A stretch of 64,000 nucleotides of DNA from Candidatus Gottesmanbacteria bacterium GW2011_GWA2_43_14 (GTDB lineage Bacteria; Patescibacteriota; Microgenomatia; 2-02-FULL-39-11): contig LCFP01000001.1 in assembly GCA_000999095.1 (NCBI GenBank), forward strand, positions 10,230 to 74,229, in the 5' to 3' direction. Positions 31,060-52,045 of this stretch are shown one piece after another. Each line of letters opens with the position of its first letter. Within the stretch, counting starts at the first letter, position 1. The notes under the pieces were generated by a model. That model searched no databases. It had not been told where the DNA came from and saw only the letters and a program-made list of their open reading frames with translations. The position numbers and the translations under genes are program-made.

Positions 31060-32397
31060 CTATTTTAGTTTAGTTTCCAATATTTTACGAGTGGTGTTTG
31101 CATCAGCGCGACCCCGCGTCTCCCTCATGACCTGGCCAAGAAGGAACATCATGGCTGTTTCTTTTCCGGCCCTGTAATCGGCAACTGCTTTGGGATTGGA
31201 ACTGATTATTTTAGAAATAATTTCCTCCAGCTCCTTATCCGGCATGGAAGAAACTTGTGACTTGGATTGGATCAGTTTAACCAGTTCTTCCGGAGATAAT
31301 TTCTTAATATCCGCTTTTTTGTTGATTATCCAGTTGGTTATTGTTTTTGCGGGCACGGTTTTGCTTATGGCGGCTTTTTCAAAATAAGCGGCAACCGCTT
31401 TTTCATCTGTCAGGATGACGGCATCATATTCGGACAAAACGTATTCTTTAATAAATCTGGTCAATTTCCGGTCAGGCAGTTCCGGAATCTGCGATTTGAA
31501 GGAATTGATTTGTGATTTCTGCCAGCGGATCGGAGGAATATCAGGCTCCGGAAAATAACGGTAATCCTGGGCTTCTTCTTTGGATCTTTGCGAAAAGGTG
31601 ATACCTTTCTTTTCGTCCCAACCGCGGGTTTCCTGTTCAGGCAGACTGCCCGTTTCCAGAATGGCTATATGCCTGTTAACTTCGTAATCAATGGCTTTTT
31701 TGGCAAAGGAAAAAGAATTTATGTTCTTGACTTCGACTTTATAGGGAGGCAGTTCGCCTGCCCTCGATTTGCTGACTTCACTGACTGAAATATTGGGCTC
31801 AAGTCTCATGGTGCCTTTCTCCATATCGGCATCGGAGATTTCCAGGTAGCGTATTATCTGATGGAGCTTTTTCAGAAAAATTCTGGCCTCTTCACTTGAC
31901 CGCAAATCCGGCTCGGTGACTATCTCGACCAGAGGCACTCCGCTGCGGTTGAAATCGATCAATGAGACTTTTTTACCGTCCACCGTGGCATGCATTAACT
32001 TGCCGGTGTCTTCTTCCAGATGCACCCTGGTTATGCCGATCCTTTTCTTTTCTTTTCCCGAAGTGATGTTCAAATAACCGCCGACGGCAAACGGCTGGTC
32101 GTACTGGGATATCTGATAACCCTTCGGCAGATCCGGGTAAAAATAATTCTTGCGGTCGAATTTGGAAAATAGGGGGATATCGCAATTCAGGGCTAGCCCC
32201 AATATGATGCACCACTCTACCGCCTTGCGGTTGGGAACAGGTAGCGCTCCGGGCAATCCCAAACAGACCGGACAGGTATAAATGTTGGGTTTGGGAGCTC
32301 CGAAAGGGTCATTTTTACAGCCGCAAAACATCTTGGAGGCGGTCTTCAGCTCCACATGTATTTCCATACCGATTATAGGATGGTAGTTTTTATTCAT
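31060..32397 (-). CDS. gatB: Asp/Glu-tRNA amidotransferase subunit B
   Basis: MEIHVELKT..KMFCGC. Confidence 0.9.
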   Translation of the reverse strand: MNKNYHPIIGMEIHVELKTASKMFCGCKNDPFGAPKPNIYTCPVCLGLPGALPVPNRKAVEWCIILGLALNCDIPLFSKFDRKNYFYPDLPKGYQISQYDQPFAVGGYLNITSGKEKKRIGITRVHLEEDTGKLMHATVDGKKVSLIDFNRSGVPLVEIVTEPDLRSSEEARIFLKKLHQIIRYLEISDADMEKGTMRLEPNISVSEVSKSRAGELPPYKVEVKNINSFSFAKKAIDYEVNRHIAILETGSLPEQETRGWDEKKGITFSQRSKEEAQDYRYFPEPDIPPIRWQKSQINSFKSQIPELPDRKLTRFIKEYVLSEYDAVILTDEKAVAAYFEKAAISKTVPAKTITNWIINKKADIKKLSPEELVKLIQSKSQVSSMPDKELEEIISKIISSNPKAVADYRAGKETAMMFLLGQVMRETRGRADANTTRKILETKLK

Positions 32398-33809
32398 TAT
32401 GAAATCATTTCAGGCTTCTTTTTGTGCCAATCAGTTACCAGTTGGTACTGATGTCCGATATTAAGCAATATTTCTTCAGTAAACATTTTGCCTATAAGTT
32501 GCATGCCAATCGGCAGTTTATTTTTAGTAAAGCCGCATGGAACCGCCAATGAAGGCACACCTACAGGATTTTGGGTTACGGTATAAAAATCTGCCAACAA
32601 ATTCTGGAGCGGATCACCTATCAATTCTCCGATAACAGTCGGCGGAGTAGGATTAACCGGCATAAGAATTGCGTCAAATTTCGAAAGGATATCCTGATAG
32701 GCTTTGATAAATAATGTTCTGGCCTTTTGGGCTTTCCGGTAAAAAGCATCATAATAACCTGCTGATAAAGCGTATGTTCCGATCATGATCCGGCGCATAG
32801 TTTCTTCGGTGAAATTTGACCTGTCATTACCATATCTGATACCGTCGTATCTGGCTAAATTCGAGCTGGTTTCACAGGGTGCGATTACATAATAAACAGC
32901 CAATCCGTAGTCAAAAATCGGCATCGATACTTCCTCAACAGCTACCCCAAGAAAGTTAAATTTTTCAGCTGCCTCTAATATGGCGTTTTTAATCTCAGGA
33001 TCAAGTCCTTTTCCCAATAAATCTTTCGGCAAAGCAATTTTTTTTCCTTTTAGAGTTTTGTCCAGGGAAGCCGTATAAGTTGGTACGGGATTAAGGGAAC
33101 TGGTGGCATCATAAGGATCTTTTCCTGCAATCCTCTCCAGGATAATAGCGCAGTCTTCGGCTGTTTTTCCCATAGGTCCGACTGTATCAAAAGACGATGC
33201 ATAGGCAATTGATCCGTATCTTGATACCCGGCCGTAGCTTACTTTTAGTCCTGTTATGTTGCACCAGGCTGCAGGATTTCTGATTGAACCTCCTGTATCT
33301 TCTCCTATAGCGAATACTGACATGCGTCCGGCTAGAGCTGCTGCCGGACCTCCGCTTGATCCACCAGCAACACGCGTTAAATCCCAGGGATTATGGGTCG
33401 GTGCAAAATCAGTATTTTCAGTACTTCCGCCATGACCCCAGGCATCCTGATTCATTTTTCCGATTAAAACCGCTCCCAAATCATTGAGTTTTTTATAGAC
33501 TGTTGCATTATATTGAGGAATATAGTCAGCTAAAACGTTTGAGGCACAGGTTGTTCTAATTCCGCGGGTTACATAGGCATCTTTTAAGACGAAGGGTATA
33601 CCGCAAAGAAGATCGCTAACTTTGTGTTCTGCATCTATTGCTTTGGCTTTTTTTAAGACAGATTTTTTATCGAGGACGGTAATGGCCGAATTAATTTCAG
33701 AATCATATTTTTCAATATTTTTATATGTCTCTTCAATAATTTCAACACAGGAATAATCCCTTCTTTTCAGGCCTGAGTGTATTTCCTTTATTGTCTTATC
33801 GGTTATCAT
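32397..33809 (-). CDS. gatA: Asp/Glu-tRNA amidotransferase subunit A (amidase)
   Basis: Amidase signature GGSSGG. Confidence 0.9.
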   Translation of the reverse strand: MITDKTIKEIHSGLKRRDYSCVEIIEETYKNIEKYDSEINSAITVLDKKSVLKKAKAIDAEHKVSDLLCGIPFVLKDAYVTRGIRTTCASNVLADYIPQYNATVYKKLNDLGAVLIGKMNQDAWGHGGSTENTDFAPTHNPWDLTRVAGGSSGGPAAALAGRMSVFAIGEDTGGSIRNPAAWCNITGLKVSYGRVSRYGSIAYASSFDTVGPMGKTAEDCAIILERIAGKDPYDATSSLNPVPTYTASLDKTLKGKKIALPKDLLGKGLDPEIKNAILEAAEKFNFLGVAVEEVSMPIFDYGLAVYYVIAPCETSSNLARYDGIRYGNDRSNFTEETMRRIMIGTYALSAGYYDAFYRKAQKARTLFIKAYQDILSKFDAILMPVNPTPPTVIGELIGDPLQNLLADFYTVTQNPVGVPSLAVPCGFTKNKLPIGMQLIGKMFTEEILLNIGHQYQLVTDWHKKKPEMIS

Positions 33810-34120
33810 ACTTCCTCAAAAATGGCTTTTACCATAAAATACCCGTTGTGATTATTTTTGGAATTTGAAAGGGCTTCTGCTTGGGACAACATGCGTTCTG
33901 CATCAACGACATCATCTCGGAAAACATTTTCCTGCCCGGTTACCTGTGAAGTTTCCTCTGTATCGGTTGTATTTAACGATTTTAATTGAGAGACATAAGA
34001 CAGGACTGATGAAACGCTTTCAGCCATTTTTTTGATTTGTGCTTCCGTAAGCTTTAAATTAGCCAATTTAGCTAATTTCTTTATTTCGTCAGTTGTCAGT
34101 TTGGTACTAGCTTTATCCAT
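33806..34120 (-). CDS. gatC: Asp/Glu-tRNA amidotransferase subunit C
   Basis: 104 aa, LTEAQIKKMA.... Confidence 0.75.
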   Translation of the reverse strand: MDKASTKLTTDEIKKLAKLANLKLTEAQIKKMAESVSSVLSYVSQLKSLNTTDTEETSQVTGQENVFRDDVVDAERMLSQAEALSNSKNNHNGYFMVKAIFEEV

Positions 34121-34179
34121 ATCTATTTATGAATATACTATTATAATATTTTTTTAATCTCCGATCATAACGTATAAAA

Positions 34180-34205
34180 GAAGCCCCGGTTGCAGGGCTT
34201 CTTTT
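34180..34205 (-). terminator. Rho-independent terminator downstream of glnA
   Basis: GAAGCCC-cggttgca-GGGCTTC 7-bp GC-rich stem followed, on the minus transcript, by UUUUAUA. Confidence 0.6.
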
Positions 34206-34226
34206 AAATGTTTATTGCCAATTTGC

Positions 34227-35573
34227 TCAGAGTATTTCCAGGTAGTTGGCCGTTTCCCAGTCGGTGACCGAAATGCGAAAATTGTCCCATTCCGCATTCT
34301 TGGCCTCAATATATCTTTTCCAGGTATATTCTCCGAAAATGTCTCTGACGATCCTTCCCTTTTCGATTTCGTCGATTGCTTCTTTGAGTGAAGCCGGCAG
34401 TTTGGCAATATAGTGTTTAGCCAAACGTGCATCGTCAAATTCGAATAGATTCTCTTCGACCGGCTCCGGCGCTTTCATCCCCTTCTTTATGCCTTCCAAG
34501 CCCGTTTTGAGCAAGGCGGCGAAAGTCAGATAAGGGTTGCTGGACGGATCAGGGCTTCTGATCTCCATCCGGGAAGCTTTTTCTTCCGTGCCTTTGGAAA
34601 CTTTCGGCACCCTGATTAAAGCTGAACGGTTTATCCTTGCCCAACAGGCATAAACCGGTGCCTCATAGCCCGGTGTCAGCCTTTTATAGGAATTGACAGT
34701 AGGCGCAAAGATACCCGTTATCTCCCGTACATGCTTTAGCTGACCGGCCAAATATTGGTAAGCAATTTTTGACAGGCCGTATTTATCGGTTTTGTCATAG
34801 AAAACATTGCGGCCACCTTTCCACAAAGACTGGTGCGTGTGCATGCCCGAACCGTTGATGCCGAAAAAAGGTTTAGGCATAAAAGTAGCATGGAAATTAT
34901 GCTTGAAGGCAATGAATTTTGTCGCCATCTTCAAAGTGATGGTATCATCAGCTGTTTTCAGAGCCTTATCATAACGGATGTCAATCTCATGTTGGTTGTC
35001 AGCCACTTCATGGGTGGAAGTTTCGGTGATGATGCCCATTTGGCCTATTGCTTCCATAATCTCCCTTTTAATGAGATAGGTCTCATCCATGATAAGGTCG
35101 AAATAATAGCCGTTGCCTTTCGACTGGAGCATAATCTTTCCGTCAGCTCCTTTGGGAAACAGGAAAAATTCGCATTCCGGCCCCGTGTAAAACTCGTAAC
35201 CCATTTGCCTGGCTTCGACCAATACTTTTTTCAGTATTTGCCGCGGGTCACCATCGAACGGTTCGTGATTTGGTTTATAAACATCGCAGATTAGCCTGGC
35301 CACTCTGCCGGTTTCGATATTGTTCCTCCAGGGCAACATTGCATAGGTGGTTGTATCCGGCATCAGAAACATGTCCGACTCATGAATCCTGGCATAACCT
35401 TCAATAGATGAGCCGTCGATCCAGATACCGCGGGAAAGGGCGTCAGCCAGATTATAGACGGGAATTGTCGAACTTTTTATATTTCCCAAAAAATCAGTAA
35501 ACTGTAAATCAATAAAGGTAACTTTGTCTTTCTTGGCACGCTCCAAAACTTCTTTAATTGCATCTTTAGGCAT
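34227..35573 (-). CDS. glnA: Glutamine synthetase type I
   Basis: 448 aa with GS beta-grasp and catalytic domains. AAGGAG Shine-Dalgarno sits 8 nt upstream. Confidence 0.9.
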   Translation of the reverse strand: MPKDAIKEVLERAKKDKVTFIDLQFTDFLGNIKSSTIPVYNLADALSRGIWIDGSSIEGYARIHESDMFLMPDTTTYAMLPWRNNIETGRVARLICDVYKPNHEPFDGDPRQILKKVLVEARQMGYEFYTGPECEFFLFPKGADGKIMLQSKGNGYYFDLIMDETYLIKREIMEAIGQMGIITETSTHEVADNQHEIDIRYDKALKTADDTITLKMATKFIAFKHNFHATFMPKPFFGINGSGMHTHQSLWKGGRNVFYDKTDKYGLSKIAYQYLAGQLKHVREITGIFAPTVNSYKRLTPGYEAPVYACWARINRSALIRVPKVSKGTEEKASRMEIRSPDPSSNPYLTFAALLKTGLEGIKKGMKAPEPVEENLFEFDDARLAKHYIAKLPASLKEAIDEIEKGRIVRDIFGEYTWKRYIEAKNAEWDNFRISVTDWETANYLEIL

Positions 35574-35612
35574 CAGTGTAAACTCCTTAAATAATTTTTA
35601 ATAATTAAATCC

Positions 35613-35681
35613 AATAAAAAAGCCCTCTGCCTCATCATCGAGTACAGAAGACTTCACTGTCTTCGTCCGCTTCTTCGCGGA
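35613..35681 (-). promoter_or_regulatory. ANTAR-type antitermination leader: two tandem hexaloop hairpins (35647-35681), with an overlapping intrinsic terminator (35613-35652) and a U6 tract
   Basis: Transcript order: UCCGC-GAAGAA-GCGGA, C, GAAGAC-AGUGAA-GUCUUC. The 3' arm of hairpin 2 (GUCUUC) is shared with the terminator stem GUCUUCUG...CAGAGGGC, which is followed by UUUUUU. Confidence 0.65.
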
Positions 35682-35718
35682 TTTGATATTTTATCTTAAA
35701 TCTGATTACGGACTTCTG

Positions 35719-36435
35719 TCAAGCCCCAAGTTTCATCCGCTCAGCCAGAATAATTGCCTCGGCTATTTCACCTATAGACTTGCGGCTGTTCATGCTTTCC
35801 TGGCGCAGCCTGCGGTAGGCTTCATTTTCATTAATGCGATTATTTTTCATTAAGATGCCCTTGGCTTTATCCAATACTTTTCTCATTTCAAGTGTTTCCC
35901 GCAAACTTAACGACTCTTCTATCAGAAGCGCATTTTCGACAGCCGTACCGGCCAGCTTACCGATGGCAGAGAGCAGGTTTATTTCCGTTGCCGTATGTTT
36001 ATGGGCTTTCTTATGCTGTACATTGATGACACCGCAGACCCCTTTTTTATTGAGGACAGGCACGGACAAAAAAGCTTCAAATTTGTCTTCCGGTAGATTA
36101 CGGAAATATTTGAAGCGCGTATCCTTGGAGGCTCCGCTGCCGATGGCCACCGGTTTTTTTTCTTTGGCAACCCAGCCGGTAATGCCTTCCCCCATTTTCA
36201 TTTTGATTTTTTTTAATAGATGCGAATGGGGATTTTTGGAAGCGCGCAAAACCAGCTCGTTTTTTTCCTGATCCAAGACATAAATCAGACAGGAATCTGC
36301 TCTTGTTACCTGGTCGGCGATTTTGACAATTTCCTGAAGCAGCTCGCTGATTTCCAGTTTATGAAGGTCCTGGGTAATTTTATACAAAAAGGATAATTCC
36401 TTCTTCAGCTCACTGACTTTATCTTCTTTTTTCAT
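35719..36435 (-). CDS. GAF-ANTAR RNA-binding antiterminator protein
   Basis: N-terminal GAF domain and a C-terminal ANTAR helix bundle (LMKNNRINENEAYRRLRQESMNSRKSIGEIAEAII). Confidence 0.75.
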   Translation of the reverse strand: MKKEDKVSELKKELSFLYKITQDLHKLEISELLQEIVKIADQVTRADSCLIYVLDQEKNELVLRASKNPHSHLLKKIKMKMGEGITGWVAKEKKPVAIGSGASKDTRFKYFRNLPEDKFEAFLSVPVLNKKGVCGVINVQHKKAHKHTATEINLLSAIGKLAGTAVENALLIEESLSLRETLEMRKVLDKAKGILMKNNRINENEAYRRLRQESMNSRKSIGEIAEAIILAERMKLGA

Positions 36436-37187
36436 GTTATTGATTTGAGCATCTTTTTATGCGCCACCTTTTCCTCAAAACTCACCAGAGGCTGTAATTT
36501 TATCTTTTTTCGGTATTTGACTTCAAGAGCCCGGGCAATCAGCCAGTCGGCCAGCTGGGGATTTTTCGGCAAAAGGGGACCGTGGTAATAACTGCCTATG
36601 GCATGACGGTATACTCCTCCTTCAAATCCGTCCTCCCCGTTATTGCCTCCTCCCGTCAGAACTTTAGCCAGAGGCTTCATTTTGCCGCCCAGATAGGTCC
36701 GGCCGCCGTGGTTTTCAAAACCAACCAGAGTTGTGCCTTTAAGTTCCGACAGGTTTACTATTTCGGAAGCGCAGTTGCCGATAAGTCTTTGTTTTTGATC
36801 GCCTGGGTGTTCAGTGTAAAGATCGAAAATTCCTGCTCCGGGAATGTCTTTTCCATGGTACGGCTTATAATAATAACCGGCTGCCTGGTAGGCGGCGCAG
36901 ACAAACAAAGCAGGAATATCCGAGTTAATCATCCTTTTTATGACCGGGCCTTTATGGTGAATAAAGTCATCCGCGGCCACTTTTTGCTGCCGGTCCTGGG
37001 CTCCTCCCATAAACAGTAAATCGGCAGTTAACAATTCTGAAATACCAGTTTCCAAGGTGATATTTTTAATTTCAACCTCAATTTTTCGCCAACTGCAGCG
37101 TTTCTCCAGACAGATCAGATTGCCCCGGTCTCCGTAAGTGGACATTAAATCAGGATACAGCCAGGCGATTGTCAGTTTGAATTTCAT
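36432..37187 (-). CDS. gatD: Lipid II isoglutaminyl synthase, glutaminase subunit (CobQ/GATase-like)
   Basis: MKFKLTIAWLYPDLMSTYGDRGN.. is typical of GatD. It overlaps murT. Confidence 0.8.
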   Translation of the reverse strand: MKFKLTIAWLYPDLMSTYGDRGNLICLEKRCSWRKIEVEIKNITLETGISELLTADLLFMGGAQDRQQKVAADDFIHHKGPVIKRMINSDIPALFVCAAYQAAGYYYKPYHGKDIPGAGIFDLYTEHPGDQKQRLIGNCASEIVNLSELKGTTLVGFENHGGRTYLGGKMKPLAKVLTGGGNNGEDGFEGGVYRHAIGSYYHGPLLPKNPQLADWLIARALEVKYRKKIKLQPLVSFEEKVAHKKMLKSIT

Positions 37188-38461
37188 AATATTTTCTTCC
37201 CGGAAATAATCTTGCGGATATCCAGCATGGCCGAATAGGTCGGCAGAACATACAATTTTTCTTCTGCTTGCCCGGCAGCTTTATTTATGGCATTGGACAG
37301 AACTGTTTCAACTGCATATTTTAGTCCGGCATATTTCATACGCAAACCCAAATCCAATGCCCTGTCGCCGGCTACCGTAATCTGTACCTTGGCGGGGATC
37401 ATTTCAAAATCAACATCCCAGATCCAGGAAACATCACGACCGTCCGGAATCCGGTCATTTAAAACCAGCAGTATGTTTTTTGCCTTAAGACCGATCACAG
37501 TTCTAAGACTTTCATTAAAACCGGCCGGATTTTTTGACAGCATCAGTTTAAGCGGTTTTCCCTGATGAACCAGTTCCTCCTGCCGTCCGAAGGCGGGACT
37601 GACTTTTTTCAAGGACTTGGCAATTAATCCGTCTTCAACACCCAATGTTTTGGCAACAGCCGCGGCTGCCTGGGTATTGTATTTGTTGTAAAGTCCCGGC
37701 AAAGGGGATTCCCAGTTGAAAAATTCCGGGTCCGGCCTTTTCAGTCCGCACTTTAGACACTGCCACCAGCCTAGGTGGGAATAATAAATGGCCGCAAACT
37801 TTAAGCGCCGGCCGCAGTTCGGACAGAATATCGAATCCGTAGCATGTTCAAAAGAATATTTCTGCAGCTTTTTAACATTGAGCCCGAAATAGACGGTTTT
37901 ACCGGCATACTTTTTTCCCAAAAAAGCAATTTGCGGATCATCGCTGTTTAAAATTAAAGCAGTCTTTTTATTCATATTTTTAATGGCCAGAGCCCATTTC
38001 TCAGTAATGACATCCACTTCCCCATAACGGTCCAGCTGGTCTCTGAAAAGATTTAGGCAAACGACCGCATTGGGAGTTATCTCCTCAACTATCGCCGGCA
38101 GTGAATTTTCATCTGTTTCCAAAACAGCATAATCACAGTTAAGCCTGCCCCATATATCAGCCTGTCGGATGAGCGAAGCGGTGATTCCGTTTATCAGATT
38201 GGCTCCGGATGAATTATTAATTACTGAGTTTCCGTTTGCTTCCAAAATGGTTTTTATCATCAGCGTAGTAGTTGTCTTGCCGTTGGTTCCGGCCACGATA
38301 ACGATGCCTTTGCGGATATGTCCGGCTAAATTTTTCAAAATATGAGGATCGATTGAAAGGGCGAGTTCACCCGGCCAAGTACCGCCAGCTCCGAGATTTA
38401 ACAGCCGGCTGAATTGCCCGACAGCTTGACCAATAATAAGTGCTGCGGTTTGTCTTATCAT
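37184..38461 (-). CDS. murT: Lipid II isoglutaminyl synthase, Mur-ligase subunit
   Basis: GTNGKTTT P-loop, CPNCG..CLKCG zinc ribbon, and a DUF1727-like C-terminus. Confidence 0.8.
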   Translation of the reverse strand: MIRQTAALIIGQAVGQFSRLLNLGAGGTWPGELALSIDPHILKNLAGHIRKGIVIVAGTNGKTTTTLMIKTILEANGNSVINNSSGANLINGITASLIRQADIWGRLNCDYAVLETDENSLPAIVEEITPNAVVCLNLFRDQLDRYGEVDVITEKWALAIKNMNKKTALILNSDDPQIAFLGKKYAGKTVYFGLNVKKLQKYSFEHATDSIFCPNCGRRLKFAAIYYSHLGWWQCLKCGLKRPDPEFFNWESPLPGLYNKYNTQAAAAVAKTLGVEDGLIAKSLKKVSPAFGRQEELVHQGKPLKLMLSKNPAGFNESLRTVIGLKAKNILLVLNDRIPDGRDVSWIWDVDFEMIPAKVQITVAGDRALDLGLRMKYAGLKYAVETVLSNAINKAAGQAEEKLYVLPTYSAMLDIRKIISGKKIL

Positions 38462-38473
38462 AATTAGGGGATT

Positions 38474-40283
38474 TTATCTGACTTTGAAGGTAATTCTATT
38501 GTCTTTGTAGTCCGCGGTCAATTCAGAACCTGCTGTAGCTTTATTTTCGATCATCCTAAACGCCAGTTCATCAAGGATTTTATCCTGGATAATTCTTTTT
38601 AAAGGCCTGGCCCCGTAGACAGGATCAAAACATGTTTTAGCCAGATATGATTTTAAATCTTCACTGAAACTGATTTTTATATTCTGCCGATCAAGCTTTT
38701 GCCGTACTTTGCCAAGCTGAATTTCTGCGATTTGCCCTACCTGTCTTTCCGTCAGACGGTGGTAGACAACAATCTGGTCAAGCCTGTTCAAAAATTCGGG
38801 CCGGAAGCTTTTACGCAACAAGTTAAGTACGCTTTCCTGCAGCTTTGCTTCACTTTTACCTTCCAATTCCTGGATTATGTCGCTGCCGAGATTTGAGGTC
38901 ATGATCAAAGATAAGTCGGGCAATATTATGTGCCTCCTGGTATTCGCTCATGTCAATTCTGATCAATGCTTTTTCGCTATCAAAAAGATATTCAGCCAAA
39001 GCTTTGGCTCTTTCGGTCTTACCGACCCCTGTCGGCCCCAGAAAAAGGAAACTGCCGATAAGTCTGTCTTCTTCGGAAAGACCTGCCCTGTTCCGCCGGA
39101 TGGCCCTGGCAATTTTTATAAGGGCTTCATCCTGGCCAACAACTCTTTTTTGCAATACTTTATCCAGTTGTACCAGTTTTTCGGTCTCGGAAGATAATAG
39201 TTTGGTAACCGGAATACCGGTCCAGCGGGCAACCACTTTTGCCACATCTTCTTCTGTGACTTCTTTCCTGATCAGCTTATCCTGATCAGGTATGTTTTGC
39301 CAGTTGCTTTCCAGTTCACGCAGTTTCTTTTCGGTTTCAGGGATCCTGCCGTATTTAATTTCCGCGGCTTTATCAAGAAGTGCCTCCCTTTCAGCTCTTT
39401 CCAATTCCAGCCTCAACTGGTCCATTTTTACCCGTTCCGACTGGAGTTTTCCGATGATTTCCTTTTGCTGCTGCCACTTTCCTGCCAATGTCTTCTCCTC
39501 TTCCTTAAGCGTTTTGACTTCATCGTTTAAACGCTTTTTCCTGTCTGTCTCCTTTTTCTCTTTTTTCAAAGAAGCCAGCTCAATTTCCAGTTGGGTGATT
39601 TTTCTTTTCAGTTTGTCTAAAGCTTCCGGCAGGCTCTCTGTTTCGATTTTTAAAGCCGAGGCTGCCTCATCTATCAGATCAATCGCCTTATCGGGCAAGA
39701 AGCGGTCAGTCAGGTAACGGACCGACAAATTGACAGCCGCGATAAGGGCATCATCGGTTATGCGGATGCCGTGATGGATTTCATATTTTTCCTTTAAACC
39801 CCGCAGGATTGCCAAAGAATCTTCAGCCGCCGGTTCATTGACCATAATCGGTTGGAAACGTCTCTCCAAAGCAGCGTCCGTTTCGATATGCTGGCGGTAT
39901 TCGCGAAGCGTGGTAGCGCCGATGGCATGTAGGTCGCCGCGGGCCAGGGCCGGTTTTAAAATATTTGCCGCATCCATGGCTCCGGCAGCTGCTCCGGCGC
40001 CGACCAATGTATGCATTTCATCCATAAACAGAATGTATTTGCCTTCCGACTTCTCGATTTCCTTTAATAGCTTTTTTAACCTGTCCTCAAACTCGCCTCG
40101 GAAACTCGAGCCGGCGACGAGTGATGCCATATCCAGAGCCAAAACAGTCTTGTTTTTGAGGGTATCGGGCACGTCTTGCGAGACAATCCGCTGGGCCAGG
40201 CCTTCGACTATGGCTGTTTTGCCCACTCCCGGATCTCCGAGAAGGACAGGATTATTTTTGGTGCGGCGGGACAGGATTTGCAT
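38474..40283 (-). pseudogene. clpB: ClpB/Hsp104-family AAA+ disaggregase, degraded. It has no N-domain or canonical start, and an internal deletion plus frameshift removes the NBD2 Walker B and sensor-1.
   Basis: Two ORFs, 38856..40283 (NBD1, M-domain coiled coil, NBD2 Walker A) and 38474..38923 (NBD2 C-terminal part, IMTSNLGS...GARPLKR). The junction jumps from ...[13 protein letters not shown] straight to IMTSNLGS in another frame. Upstream, the frame is open to 40426 with no ATG/GTG/TTG. Confidence 0.6.
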
Positions 40284-43769: not shown

Positions 43770-43842
43770 GGGCTCGTGGTGTAGCGGTTAACATGTCGCC
43801 CTGTCGAGGCGAAGATCGCCGGTTCGAATCCGGTCGGGCCCG
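43770..43842 (+). tRNA. tRNA-Asp (anticodon GTC)
   Basis: Cloverleaf hand-folded; anticodon arm TCGCC-CTGTCGA-GGCGA; T-loop GGTTCGAATCC; no encoded CCA. Confidence 0.8.
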
Positions 43843-49992: not shown

Positions 49993-50117
49993 GTATTCCT
50001 TCGGGGTAGGGTGAGATTCCCAATCGGCGGTATAACCCGCGAGGTCCCGATTTAATCGGGACCATGATCAGGCTGAATTCCTGAGTCGACCGTAAAGTCG
50101 GGATGGAAGAAGGATTA
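49993..50117 (+). ncRNA. FMN riboswitch (RFN element)
   Basis: P1 5' TTCCTTC...GAAGGA 3'. Conserved cores GGGTGAGATTCCC, CGGCGGTATAACCCGCGAG and GACCGTAAAGTCGGGATGGAAGAAGGA match the RFN consensus. It is followed by the hairpin CCGGCtgttttGCCGG and then the RBS/ATG of the downstream transporter. Confidence 0.8.
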
Positions 50118-50179
50118 CTATACCGGCTGTTTTGCCGGAAATATTATAAATGTTTACCCCGAAGCTAGGGGTATTTTTT

Positions 50180-51488: not shown

Positions 51489-52045
51489 TTCGTATCAGAA
51501 TTTTTCTTCTACTAGCCGTTACCACAGTACTTCTGATCGTCAGACAACCGGCCTTGATTTTTACTTTTTTACTGCTGATAACTTTTTTTTCTTTTTTAAC
51601 TGTTCCTTACCATAAATTTATGGCCAGGCTGAAACCCCTGCTTTTCATTTCCTTTTTTATTATTATTTTCCAGCTGATATTCAACCTGTCGGTTTCACCT
51701 CTTGACCGGTTTTTGCTCGGGATTAATGCTGTAGCTAAAATCCTGGCGATTTCTTTATCGGTTTTTTATTTCACCACAACTACTTCCCTGGGTGAAATAA
51801 TAGGAGCTTTATCATTCCTGCCGTCCTCAGCCCGCCTGGCACTGACTGTCACCTTCAGCCTGATTCCGGCCGTGATCGAAGAAGGCAGGCAAATTTCCAT
51901 AGTGCAATCATCCCGGGGATTAAAAAAATCGATAAGAAATCCTCTGGCGGCTGTTATCCCCGTTATTATCCCGCTGATCCACCGGGTCTTGTCCCGGGCG
52001 GAAAAAATCAGCCTGGCTTTATATACTAAAGGTTATGGAAAATAA
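51485..52045 (+). CDS. ecfT: ECF transporter transmembrane (T) component, short
   Basis: Polytopic protein with SSARLAL and QSSRGL motifs. It is 186 aa, shorter than the typical EcfT. Confidence 0.6.
   Translation: MIRIRIFLLLAVTTVLLIVRQPALIFTFLLLITFFSFLTVPYHKFMARLKPLLFISFFIIIFQLIFNLSVSPLDRFLLGINAVAKILAISLSVFYFTTTTSLGEIIGALSFLPSSARLALTVTFSLIPAVIEEGRQISIVQSSRGLKKSIRNPLAAVIPVIIPLIHRVLSRAEKISLALYTKGYGK

Follow-up and report, generated by a model that had tools for sequence, protein, structure and literature searches.

A probable ANTAR-type transcription attenuator in the glnA leader of a Candidatus Gottesmanbacteria genome and its candidate GAF-ANTAR regulator

The RNA targets described for ANTAR regulators consist of two tandem hairpins with six-nucleotide loops (hexaloops) whose first base is A and whose fourth is G (A1/G4), the second hairpin (P2) overlapping an intrinsic terminator (PMC3369931, PMC8934654). 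Ramesh et al. predicted such targets in 2012 upstream of nitrogen genes, glutamine synthetase included (PMC3369931; PMC3369936). Supplementary file 6 of that study has glutamine synthetase 25 times, e.g., Alkaliphilus Amet_3386, which adjoins the ANTAR gene Amet_3385 just downstream of gatB (PMC3369931). In Clostridium saccharobutylicum, the ANTAR protein NitR induces the genes of glutamine synthetase and glutamate synthase (GS/GOGAT) (PMC6316151). Since glutamine synthetase leaders of this type were predicted in 2012 and NitR controls glnA in Clostridium, the kind of system described here is already known. We analyzed a leader RNA upstream of the glutamine synthetase gene glnA in a 64,000-nucleotide stretch, hereafter the window, of Candidatus Gottesmanbacteria bacterium GW2011_GWA2_43_14 (contig LCFP01000001.1, positions 10,230 to 74,229), a member of the candidate phyla radiation (CPR, Patescibacteria). 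This leader is very probably an ANTAR-type transcription attenuator that gates glnA and is read by the GAF-ANTAR protein encoded beside it, a reading directly supported by the architecture and energetics of the RNA, its conservation, its association with glnA and amtB, the domain identity of the protein and the RNA contact residues kept in it.

The GAF-ANTAR architecture has been catalogued, with no characterized example in the literature searched (PMC3369931, PMC7496416, PMC12591593); NasR and PAL are the only one-component ANTAR proteins characterized (PMC7496416), and a 2025 review merely lists GAF-ANTAR (PMC12591593). The leader thus provides a concrete target (glnA and amtB leaders) for a large one-component class, and the GAF domain a plausible signal. 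What is new here is this uncharacterized sensor class, the CPR host and the signal that we infer. Further differences from known systems are linkers of 1 to ~18 nucleotides (nt) between the hairpins and, in the window, a G at position 1 of the loop of the first hairpin (P1). The existing picture of ANTAR antitermination and of its link to nitrogen metabolism is unchanged by the glnA leader.

The eut leaders of Enterococcus faecalis, read by EutV/EutW, resemble ours in their tandem hexaloops, in G4, in the A1 of the P2 loop and in the P2 3' arm shared with the terminator. The ANTAR domain of our regulator aligns with EutV (6wsh) at an expectation value (E) of 7e-12, and more weakly with NasR (E 6e-6) and Rv1626; the equivalents of K143, R168, M172, N173 and R175, EutV residues that contact the RNA or that binding requires (PMC8934654), are all kept. 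However, EutV carries a receiver domain phosphorylated via a histidine kinase instead of a GAF sensor, its targets serve ethanolamine utilization rather than glnA expression, its host lies outside the CPR, and the eut linkers measure 5-12 nt as opposed to 1 nt here, where the P1 loop of the window has G1.

NitR and the glnA-linked ANTAR regulators of Firmicutes are presumably of the receiver type, not GAF proteins. They share with the window an ANTAR gene beside glnA, a dual-hairpin leader and a nitrogen-limitation logic, and the gatB neighborhood of Alkaliphilus is found in the window as well. The systems differ in that our regulator has a PtsP-like GAF sensor and its gene sits in a murT-gatD ... 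gatCAB cluster, whereas in Clostridium antisense RNA control is added (PMC6316151). NasR of Klebsiella oxytoca (NIT-ANTAR) has the same one-component arrangement of sensor, helix and ANTAR domain and antiterminates at a hexaloop hairpin to control an operon for nitrogen assimilation (PMC7496416), but its sensor is the nitrate/nitrite-responsive NIT domain and its target nasF, in place of GAF and glnA. GnfR of Geobacter sulfurreducens likewise antiterminates at leader terminators, those of nifH, glnK and amtB, although it is a receiver-ANTAR two-component response regulator embedded in a sigma-54 cascade and a nitrogen-fixation regulon (PMC2995071).

Anatomy and energetics of the glnA leader

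Coordinates are those of the window throughout, and regulator, leader and glnA all lie on the minus strand. In transcript order, the features are as follows.

35719-36435, minus: GAF-ANTAR one-component regulator gene, 238 amino acids (aa) (open reading frame [ORF] list and Pfam)
35693-35722, minus: promoter-like site TTGACA-N18-TAAGAT (10/12 consensus matches; function inferred)
35666-35681, minus: P1 hairpin UCCGC-GAAGAA-GCGGA, 5 base pairs (bp), hexaloop G1/G4 (-7.9 kcal/mol)
35665, minus: one-nucleotide linker C between P1 and P2 (read from sequence)
35647-35664, minus: P2 hairpin GAAGAC-AGUGAA-GUCUUC, 6 bp, hexaloop A1/G4, the putative antiterminator element (-6.1 kcal/mol)
35622-35652, minus: intrinsic terminator stem-loop GUCUUCUG...CAGAGGGC (in the minimum free energy [MFE] structure)
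35616-35621, minus: U6 tract of the terminator (read from sequence)
35583-35588, minus: ribosome-binding site AAGGAG, 9 nt before the glnA ATG (35573) and 27 nt after the U tract
34227-35573, minus: glnA, type I glutamine synthetase, 448 aa (Pfam and TIGR00653)

The original prediction, made from the sequence alone, had placed two hexaloop hairpins one nucleotide apart in the 145-nt spacer between a GAF-ANTAR gene and glnA, with A1/G4 in the second loop; since every element that it described is present in the sequence, the description was accurate. It also had the 3' arm of the second hairpin double as the 5' arm of a terminator followed by U6. The shared segment is indeed GUCUUC (35652-35647), and the terminator is longer than had been noted, with 12 bp and one bulge (core -14.1 kcal/mol), extendable into the U tract by three A-U/G-U pairs (-18.0 kcal/mol). 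Upstream, the -35 hexamer of the promoter-like site overlaps the regulator stop codon and its -10 hexamer ends 11 nt 5' of P1; downstream, the U6 tract ends 43 nt before the glnA start codon, and the fold and its pair probabilities leave the AAGGAG site outside P1, P2 and the terminator. At its tip the terminator carries a small hexaloop hairpin of 3 bp, CUC-GAUGAU-GAG (35631-35642, minus), and the equivalent loop in three homologous leaders (L001, L088, L089) is AAUGAU or AAUGUU, i.e., A1/G4. This loop could be a third ANTAR-binding loop, or a coincidence.

The MFE fold of the spacer contains P1 and the terminator (-37 kcal/mol), with a z-score of -3.5 against dinucleotide shuffles, none of 200 of which folded as well. 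When the 66-nt core was folded with P2 forced, P1 plus P2 reached -19.3 kcal/mol as opposed to -26.8 for P1 plus terminator, so that the terminator form is favored by 7.5 kcal/mol; in the equilibrium ensemble the pair probability of P2 is 0.002 and that of the terminator 0.99, its pairs spanning 0.89-0.998. The two structures, which both use GUCUUC, are mutually exclusive, as predicted. The claim that this is the established ANTAR architecture also holds against the published target definition (PMC3369931, PMC8934654). Following Ramesh et al. (2012), we find the tandem hexaloops, the overlap of P2 with the terminator, A1 and G4 in the P2 loop AGUGAA and an ANTAR protein in the same genome, encoded by the adjacent gene (35719-36435); the P1 loop GAAGAA has G4, and G in place of A at position 1.

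Within the window, the leader stands alone. A mechanical scan of both strands (128 kb) for two adjacent hexaloops, which required stems no shorter than 5 bp, a G4 in each loop and an A1 in the second, returned only this tandem pair. A covariance model (R1) was built from 11 longer-linker leaders (alignment A5), leaving out the window and its closest relative, L001, and the remaining leaders were aligned to it by Infernal; earlier MAFFT alignments (A2-A4) were dropped for structure counts because they split the 3' arm of P1 where the linker is short. With filters off, R1 ranked the glnA leader first in both strands of the 64 kb (17.6 bits, E about 0.05), a score depressed by its short linker. 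The original prediction had suggested a search for further dual-hexaloop motifs: within the window, an improved model (R2) gave no second site, the next match scoring 11 bits. The second-ranked match, at 51747-51796 (minus; R1 15.9 bits, R2 11 bits), was discarded as a chance match, having a 17-nt P1 loop and lying antisense inside a plus-strand ORF.

Conservation of the leader and its target genes

Using 30 aligned regulator homologues, a search through GTDB that took a single genome for each species gave 80 loci (these and those added below, with their flanks, are numbered L001-L160), in about 20 of which glnA adjoins the regulator gene. These ~20 are labeled Gottesmanbacteria, Buchananbacteria, Paceibacterota, Roizmanbacteria or generic Patescibacteria, and several metagenome-assembled genomes under other labels carry equally similar regulator sequences; an identical public protein and the nearest relatives of our regulator, 81% identical, point to Candidatus Gottesmanbacteria. 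Nearly all of the glnA-adjacent loci have a common intergenic layout: a TTGACA-type promoter, P1 closed by C-G with loop AAnGnn, P2 of the form (A)GAC-AnnGnn-GUC(U) and, at the end, a second use of the P2 3' arm in a hairpin that has a U run behind it.

Over the 80 loci and the window, R1 found 22 credible sites, half of them outside its seed (the window, L001, L002, L004, L005, L009, L018, L027, L062, L073 and L075). Ten further loci came from a scan of metagenomes, and their regulators share 58-68% identity with that of the window; nine have the motif, with glnA next in all nine. Eight of these nine motifs are distinct (L082 repeats L081) and the L085 leader duplicates that of L005, so that seven entered the alignment, which comprises 29 leaders (22 from GTDB, window included, plus the seven). 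The hairpins, whose conservation in orthologous glnA leaders the original prediction had made a test of itself, are therefore found in 28 loci besides the window.

Standard pairs fill 95% of the paired cells of the 29 leaders, a fraction somewhat inflated because the alignment was fitted to the model structure, compared with 75% in column shuffles and 25-46% when partners are slid by one to three columns. Changes on both sides of a pair occur in 53 cells, where shuffles give 16.5 +/- 3.0. Of the five P1 pairs, four carry compensatory changes and take up to six pair types, and the closing C-G is invariant; the changes are visible in the raw sequences too. This covariation supports the pairing of P1. 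The P2 core GAC/GUC is invariant across the 29 leaders, a strict conservation that is silent on the pairing itself and fits an element recognized by a protein.

The loops are similarly constrained. Among the 22 aligned GTDB leaders, P1 has A1 in 20, with G1 only in the window and L018 (the closest relative, L001, reads AAAGAA), and the seven metagenome leaders all have A1; in the P2 loop, every one of the 22 has G4 and 19 have A1. An equivalent of the overlapping terminator is found in at least 17 of the 22, as well as in the metagenome leaders L081-L089, with a run of at least five T after the hairpin (U5-7). The best promoter-like match reaches at least 10 on a 12-point scale in 16/22 leaders, and in 15/22 the best -35/-10 match ends 5-12 nt before P1. 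Measured from the 5-bp P1 to the 4-bp P2 of the model, the gap in the window is 3 nt, and the 22 leaders span 2 to 18 nt. In two Paceibacterota glnA leaders, L010 (4820-4900) and L027 (4830-4900), a third hexaloop hairpin joins the tandem pair ahead of the terminator.

The motif tracks the target gene, not the regulator gene. At all sites but one it lies directly upstream of glnA or, once, of amtB, even where the gene order differs: in L018 it stands about 55 nt before a glnA that is itself 2.4 kb away from the regulator, in L062 leader and glnA both come ahead of the regulator, and in the Uhrbacteria locus L075 (4764-6097) the same regulator, leader and terminator precede the ammonium transporter gene amtB (Pfam 2e-127). 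Motif and GAF-ANTAR gene co-occur in every locus where the motif was found. The exception to the target rule is L009 (3640-4672), where the dual hairpin and terminator precede a small ORF and the GAF-ANTAR gene, with no glnA nearby; this leader may serve autoregulation of the GAF-ANTAR gene.

The distant homologues of the regulator, acidobacterial ones among them (most of L006-L080 and L092-L160), lack both glnA and a convincing motif in the flanks covered and are uninformative about this leader. In two Acidobacteria loci, L049 (4794-8066) and L035, the GAF-ANTAR gene is followed at a distance of about 1.5 kb by amtB and glnB, and L049 carries a P1-like hairpin, GGACAC-AACGCC-GUGUCC. The nitrogen link of GAF-ANTAR genes may extend beyond the CPR. 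As to regulator architecture, L054 (3282-4627) has two tandem GAF-ANTAR genes before its glnA leader, and several non-CPR loci, L036, L040, L072 and L079 among them, encode longer regulators of ~410 aa with two GAF-like segments.

The GAF-ANTAR regulator, its neighborhood and its candidate signal

Two domains make up the regulator:

35935-36354, minus: GAF sensor domain, PtsP/EI-Ntr-like, aa 28-167 (Pfam GAF/GAF_2, PDB, fold and NCBIfam)
35749-35904, minus: ANTAR domain, aa 178-229 (Pfam PF03861, profile positions 3-54 of 54)

Both matches exceed the curated Pfam cut-offs (GAF_2, 60.8 bits, 2e-16; ANTAR, 69.5 bits, 2e-19, with a cut-off of 27.3), and the product of the downstream gene matches the TIGR00653 equivalog at 495.8 bits (cut-off 429.15) and carries Gln-synt_C (8e-121) and Gln-synt_N (3e-29). 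The prediction of a GAF-ANTAR gene before glnA is thereby confirmed. Besides the EutV contact residues mentioned above, S214, M215 and R218 are invariant in the 30 regulator homologues. An AlphaFold2 monomer model (mean predicted local distance difference test score of 83) contains a GAF fold, a long continuous helix (149-199) and a three-helix ANTAR bundle, a predicted layout that is that of other ANTAR regulators dimerizing through a coiled coil. In databases, this protein and several relatives bear the name uroporphyrinogen-III synthase, which we reject for the regulator, as Pfam finds only GAF and ANTAR. In Terriglobus roseus DSM 18391 (L080, 2969-4639), the homologue is 556 aa long and joins GAF and ANTAR to HemD, the uroporphyrinogen-III synthase, and the misnomer probably spread from fusions such as this one.

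The gene stands in a cluster that, in minus-strand order, runs murT, gatD, the 238-aa GAF-ANTAR ORF, the 145-nt spacer, glnA, a terminator-like hairpin and gatC-gatA-gatB, its ATG overlapping the gatD stop codon (ATGA, 36432-36435). The flanking features are:

37184-38461, minus: murT
36432-37187, minus: gatD
34175-34206, minus: terminator-like hairpin 3' of glnA, between glnA and gatCAB (12-bp inverted repeat; weak T tract TTTTAT)

Regulator and glnA thus sit amid two glutamine-consuming systems (31060-38461, minus): murT-gatD, a glutamine amidotransferase pair for peptidoglycan amidation, and gatC-gatA-gatB, the glutamine-dependent tRNA amidotransferase. The whole order is kept in the Gottesmanbacteria-like loci L001, L002, L004, L005 and L081-L086. 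Elsewhere in the window, a ClpB-like gene (38474-40283, minus) is split across overlapping ORFs in different frames (38474-38923 and 38856-40283), either by a frameshift or by a sequencing or assembly error, and there are a flavin mononucleotide riboswitch (102.5 bits, 49993-50118, plus strand) and four tRNA genes, at 43770, 44569, 52418 (plus) and 60846 (minus).

The closest PDB sequences to the GAF domain, in profile and single-sequence searches, are 3e0y, 3ci6 and 3trc. In the profile search 3ci6 and 3trc, the PtsP/EI-Ntr GAF domains of Acinetobacter and Coxiella, gave 1e-20 and 4e-15; by sequence, 3e0y (a Geobacter GAF domain) is a slightly better match than they are. Foldseek ranks 3ci6 (E 4e-12, TM-score 0.84-0.88 normalized to target) and 3trc first, and the best partial match in NCBIfam is the N terminus of the PtsP model PRK11061 (positions 17-151), with NifA next. 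Blocks GEGxxGxV, RFxY and FL(S/G)VP are common to PtsP and our regulator. PtsP is therefore the best match by fold and among the top three by sequence. Its output is a phosphoenolpyruvate-dependent phosphotransferase rather than an RNA-binding ANTAR domain, and the identity is ~22-25%.

The GAF domain of PtsP binds glutamine, which inhibits, and 2-oxoglutarate, which stimulates (PMC4848567, PMC13104625). Because our GAF domain is closest to that of PtsP/EI-Ntr, we propose these metabolites as the input: glutamine might turn RNA binding off and/or 2-oxoglutarate turn it on, an assignment that we consider a good candidate with somewhat less than an even chance of being correct. With this input, the regulator would be a one-component nitrogen-status sensor. 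The nitrogen-status signal that the original prediction had offered as a possibility thus appears strengthened by the comparison with PtsP, short of proof.

It is rather unlikely, yet a serious alternative, that the same attenuator operates with a GAF domain that senses another input. Cyclic nucleotides, other metabolites and protein partners, for example PII or a feedback-inhibited glutamine synthetase, would be the candidates. GAF domains bind many ligands, the identity to the PtsP domain is as low as 22-25%, and cAMP- and cGMP-binding GAF domains are only slightly weaker fold matches (in Foldseek, the cAMP-bound Lcd1, 5w10, at E 3e-10 and phosphodiesterase GAF domains close behind PtsP at 4e-12), which leaves the ligand uncertain. 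However, nitrogen-status GAF domains are among the best matches in three independent comparisons (PDB sequence, fold and NCBIfam), the three sequence blocks are common with PtsP, glnA and amtB are the targets expected for a glutamine or 2-oxoglutarate sensor, and no PII or amtB gene lies within the 64-kb window.

Proposed mechanism, alternatives and implications

Protein-RNA binding and the direction of the effect are taken here from the mechanism of EutV, NasR and AmiR. Transcription would start at the promoter-like element over the regulator stop codon, or read through from the murT-gatD-regulator operon; the leader would begin almost directly with P1. With no protein bound, the stronger downstream terminator would capture the 3' arm of P2 and the polymerase would stop at U6, making OFF the default state. 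In its RNA-binding state, the GAF-ANTAR protein, probably as a coiled-coil dimer, would bind the P1 and then the P2 hexaloop, successive binding being the current model for EutV (PMC8934654). The bound protein would hold P2 closed, the terminator would be blocked, and the polymerase would read into glnA. Physiological logic would require the ON state under nitrogen limitation (high 2-oxoglutarate, low glutamine), the same direction as that of the PtsP ligands.

Several observations, together with the strength of the cAMP/cGMP GAF matches, speak against this reading. The P1 loop of the window starts with G, at a position where A matters to both NasR and EutV (PMC3369931). With 1 nt, the linker falls well short of the 5-12 nt found in eut leaders of E. 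faecalis, a constraint established for EutV only (PMC3369931, PMC8934654); induction was lost once the eutP linker had been cut to 3 nt (PMC3369931); given that the linker varies widely among the orthologous leaders, the geometry may differ from that of EutV. In the protein, R177 of EutV is replaced by Ser. Among the homologous loci, the canonical motif is absent in L047 and L055, and acidobacterial regulator homologues have no such leader within 4 kb. Two Roizmanbacteria glnA leaders, L051 (3788-3850) and L064 (4694-4750), lack an alternative terminator hairpin, their P2 running directly into a U-rich tract, and the switch logic of these leaders may differ.

The last two leaders would also suit a mechanism in which the ANTAR protein binds the dual hairpin and acts on translation or mRNA stability, like the actinobacterial ANTAR RNAs, which are reported to overlap start sites and repress translation (bioRxiv 10.1101/660928). 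We regard this as improbable, since in the window the U tract is followed only after 27-43 nt by the Shine-Dalgarno sequence and ATG, which are outside P1, P2 and the terminator, and most leaders keep a GC-containing hairpin with U5-7 that overlaps P2.

In other phyla there are nitrogen genes preceded by glutamine riboswitches, and the leader is conserved, as would be expected if it were a metabolite riboswitch (e.g., glutamine sensing) or were read by a factor other than the neighboring protein. Such a reading is slightly more improbable still: Rfam has no family in the leader at gathering scores, and raising E to 10 adds only chance matches to eukaryotic long noncoding and small nucleolar RNAs; the conserved part consists of two small hexaloop hairpins, with no junction resembling a ligand pocket; and the motif is accompanied by a GAF-ANTAR gene in every locus that has it.

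Least probable of all is a plain terminator of the murT-gatD-regulator operon, with P1 and P2 incidental, glnA under its own unregulated promoter and no antitermination: we saw no other terminator in the spacer between the regulator stop codon and glnA, and this one would necessarily also end upstream transcripts, but the promoter-like site lies upstream of P1, so that transcripts from it must cross the terminator, P1 covaries while staying paired, the loops keep AAnGnn and AnnGnn, and the motif precedes glnA with no regulator gene upstream (L062, L018) and amtB in L075.

An ANTAR-type attenuator in front of glnA, read by the adjacent protein, thus remains our reading of the locus. To our knowledge, little is known about gene regulation in CPR bacteria, and the literature searched contained no paper on ANTAR-based or nitrogen regulation in them. 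With 238 aa of protein and 66 nt of RNA, the system is compact and could be reconstituted in vitro or heterologously without culturing the organism, and the rules for predicting ANTAR regulons could be refined by the variation that nature offers in linker length and at loop position 1. We tentatively suggest, as a possibility that falls short of an even chance, that in several CPR lineages the GAF-ANTAR protein is a self-contained nitrogen-status sensor, in which glutamine and/or 2-oxoglutarate bound by the PtsP-like GAF domain would directly switch an RNA-binding ANTAR dimer, and that it governs ammonium assimilation (glnA and, in some lineages, amtB) as the principal regulator, perhaps as the sole one. 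If so, it would give the GAF-ANTAR class its first assigned target and signal, it would work at hairpin spacings (1 to about 18 nt) not tolerated by EutV, and in these lineages with minimal genomes it would do the job that NtrBC/PII, GlnR/TnrA or NtcA do elsewhere.

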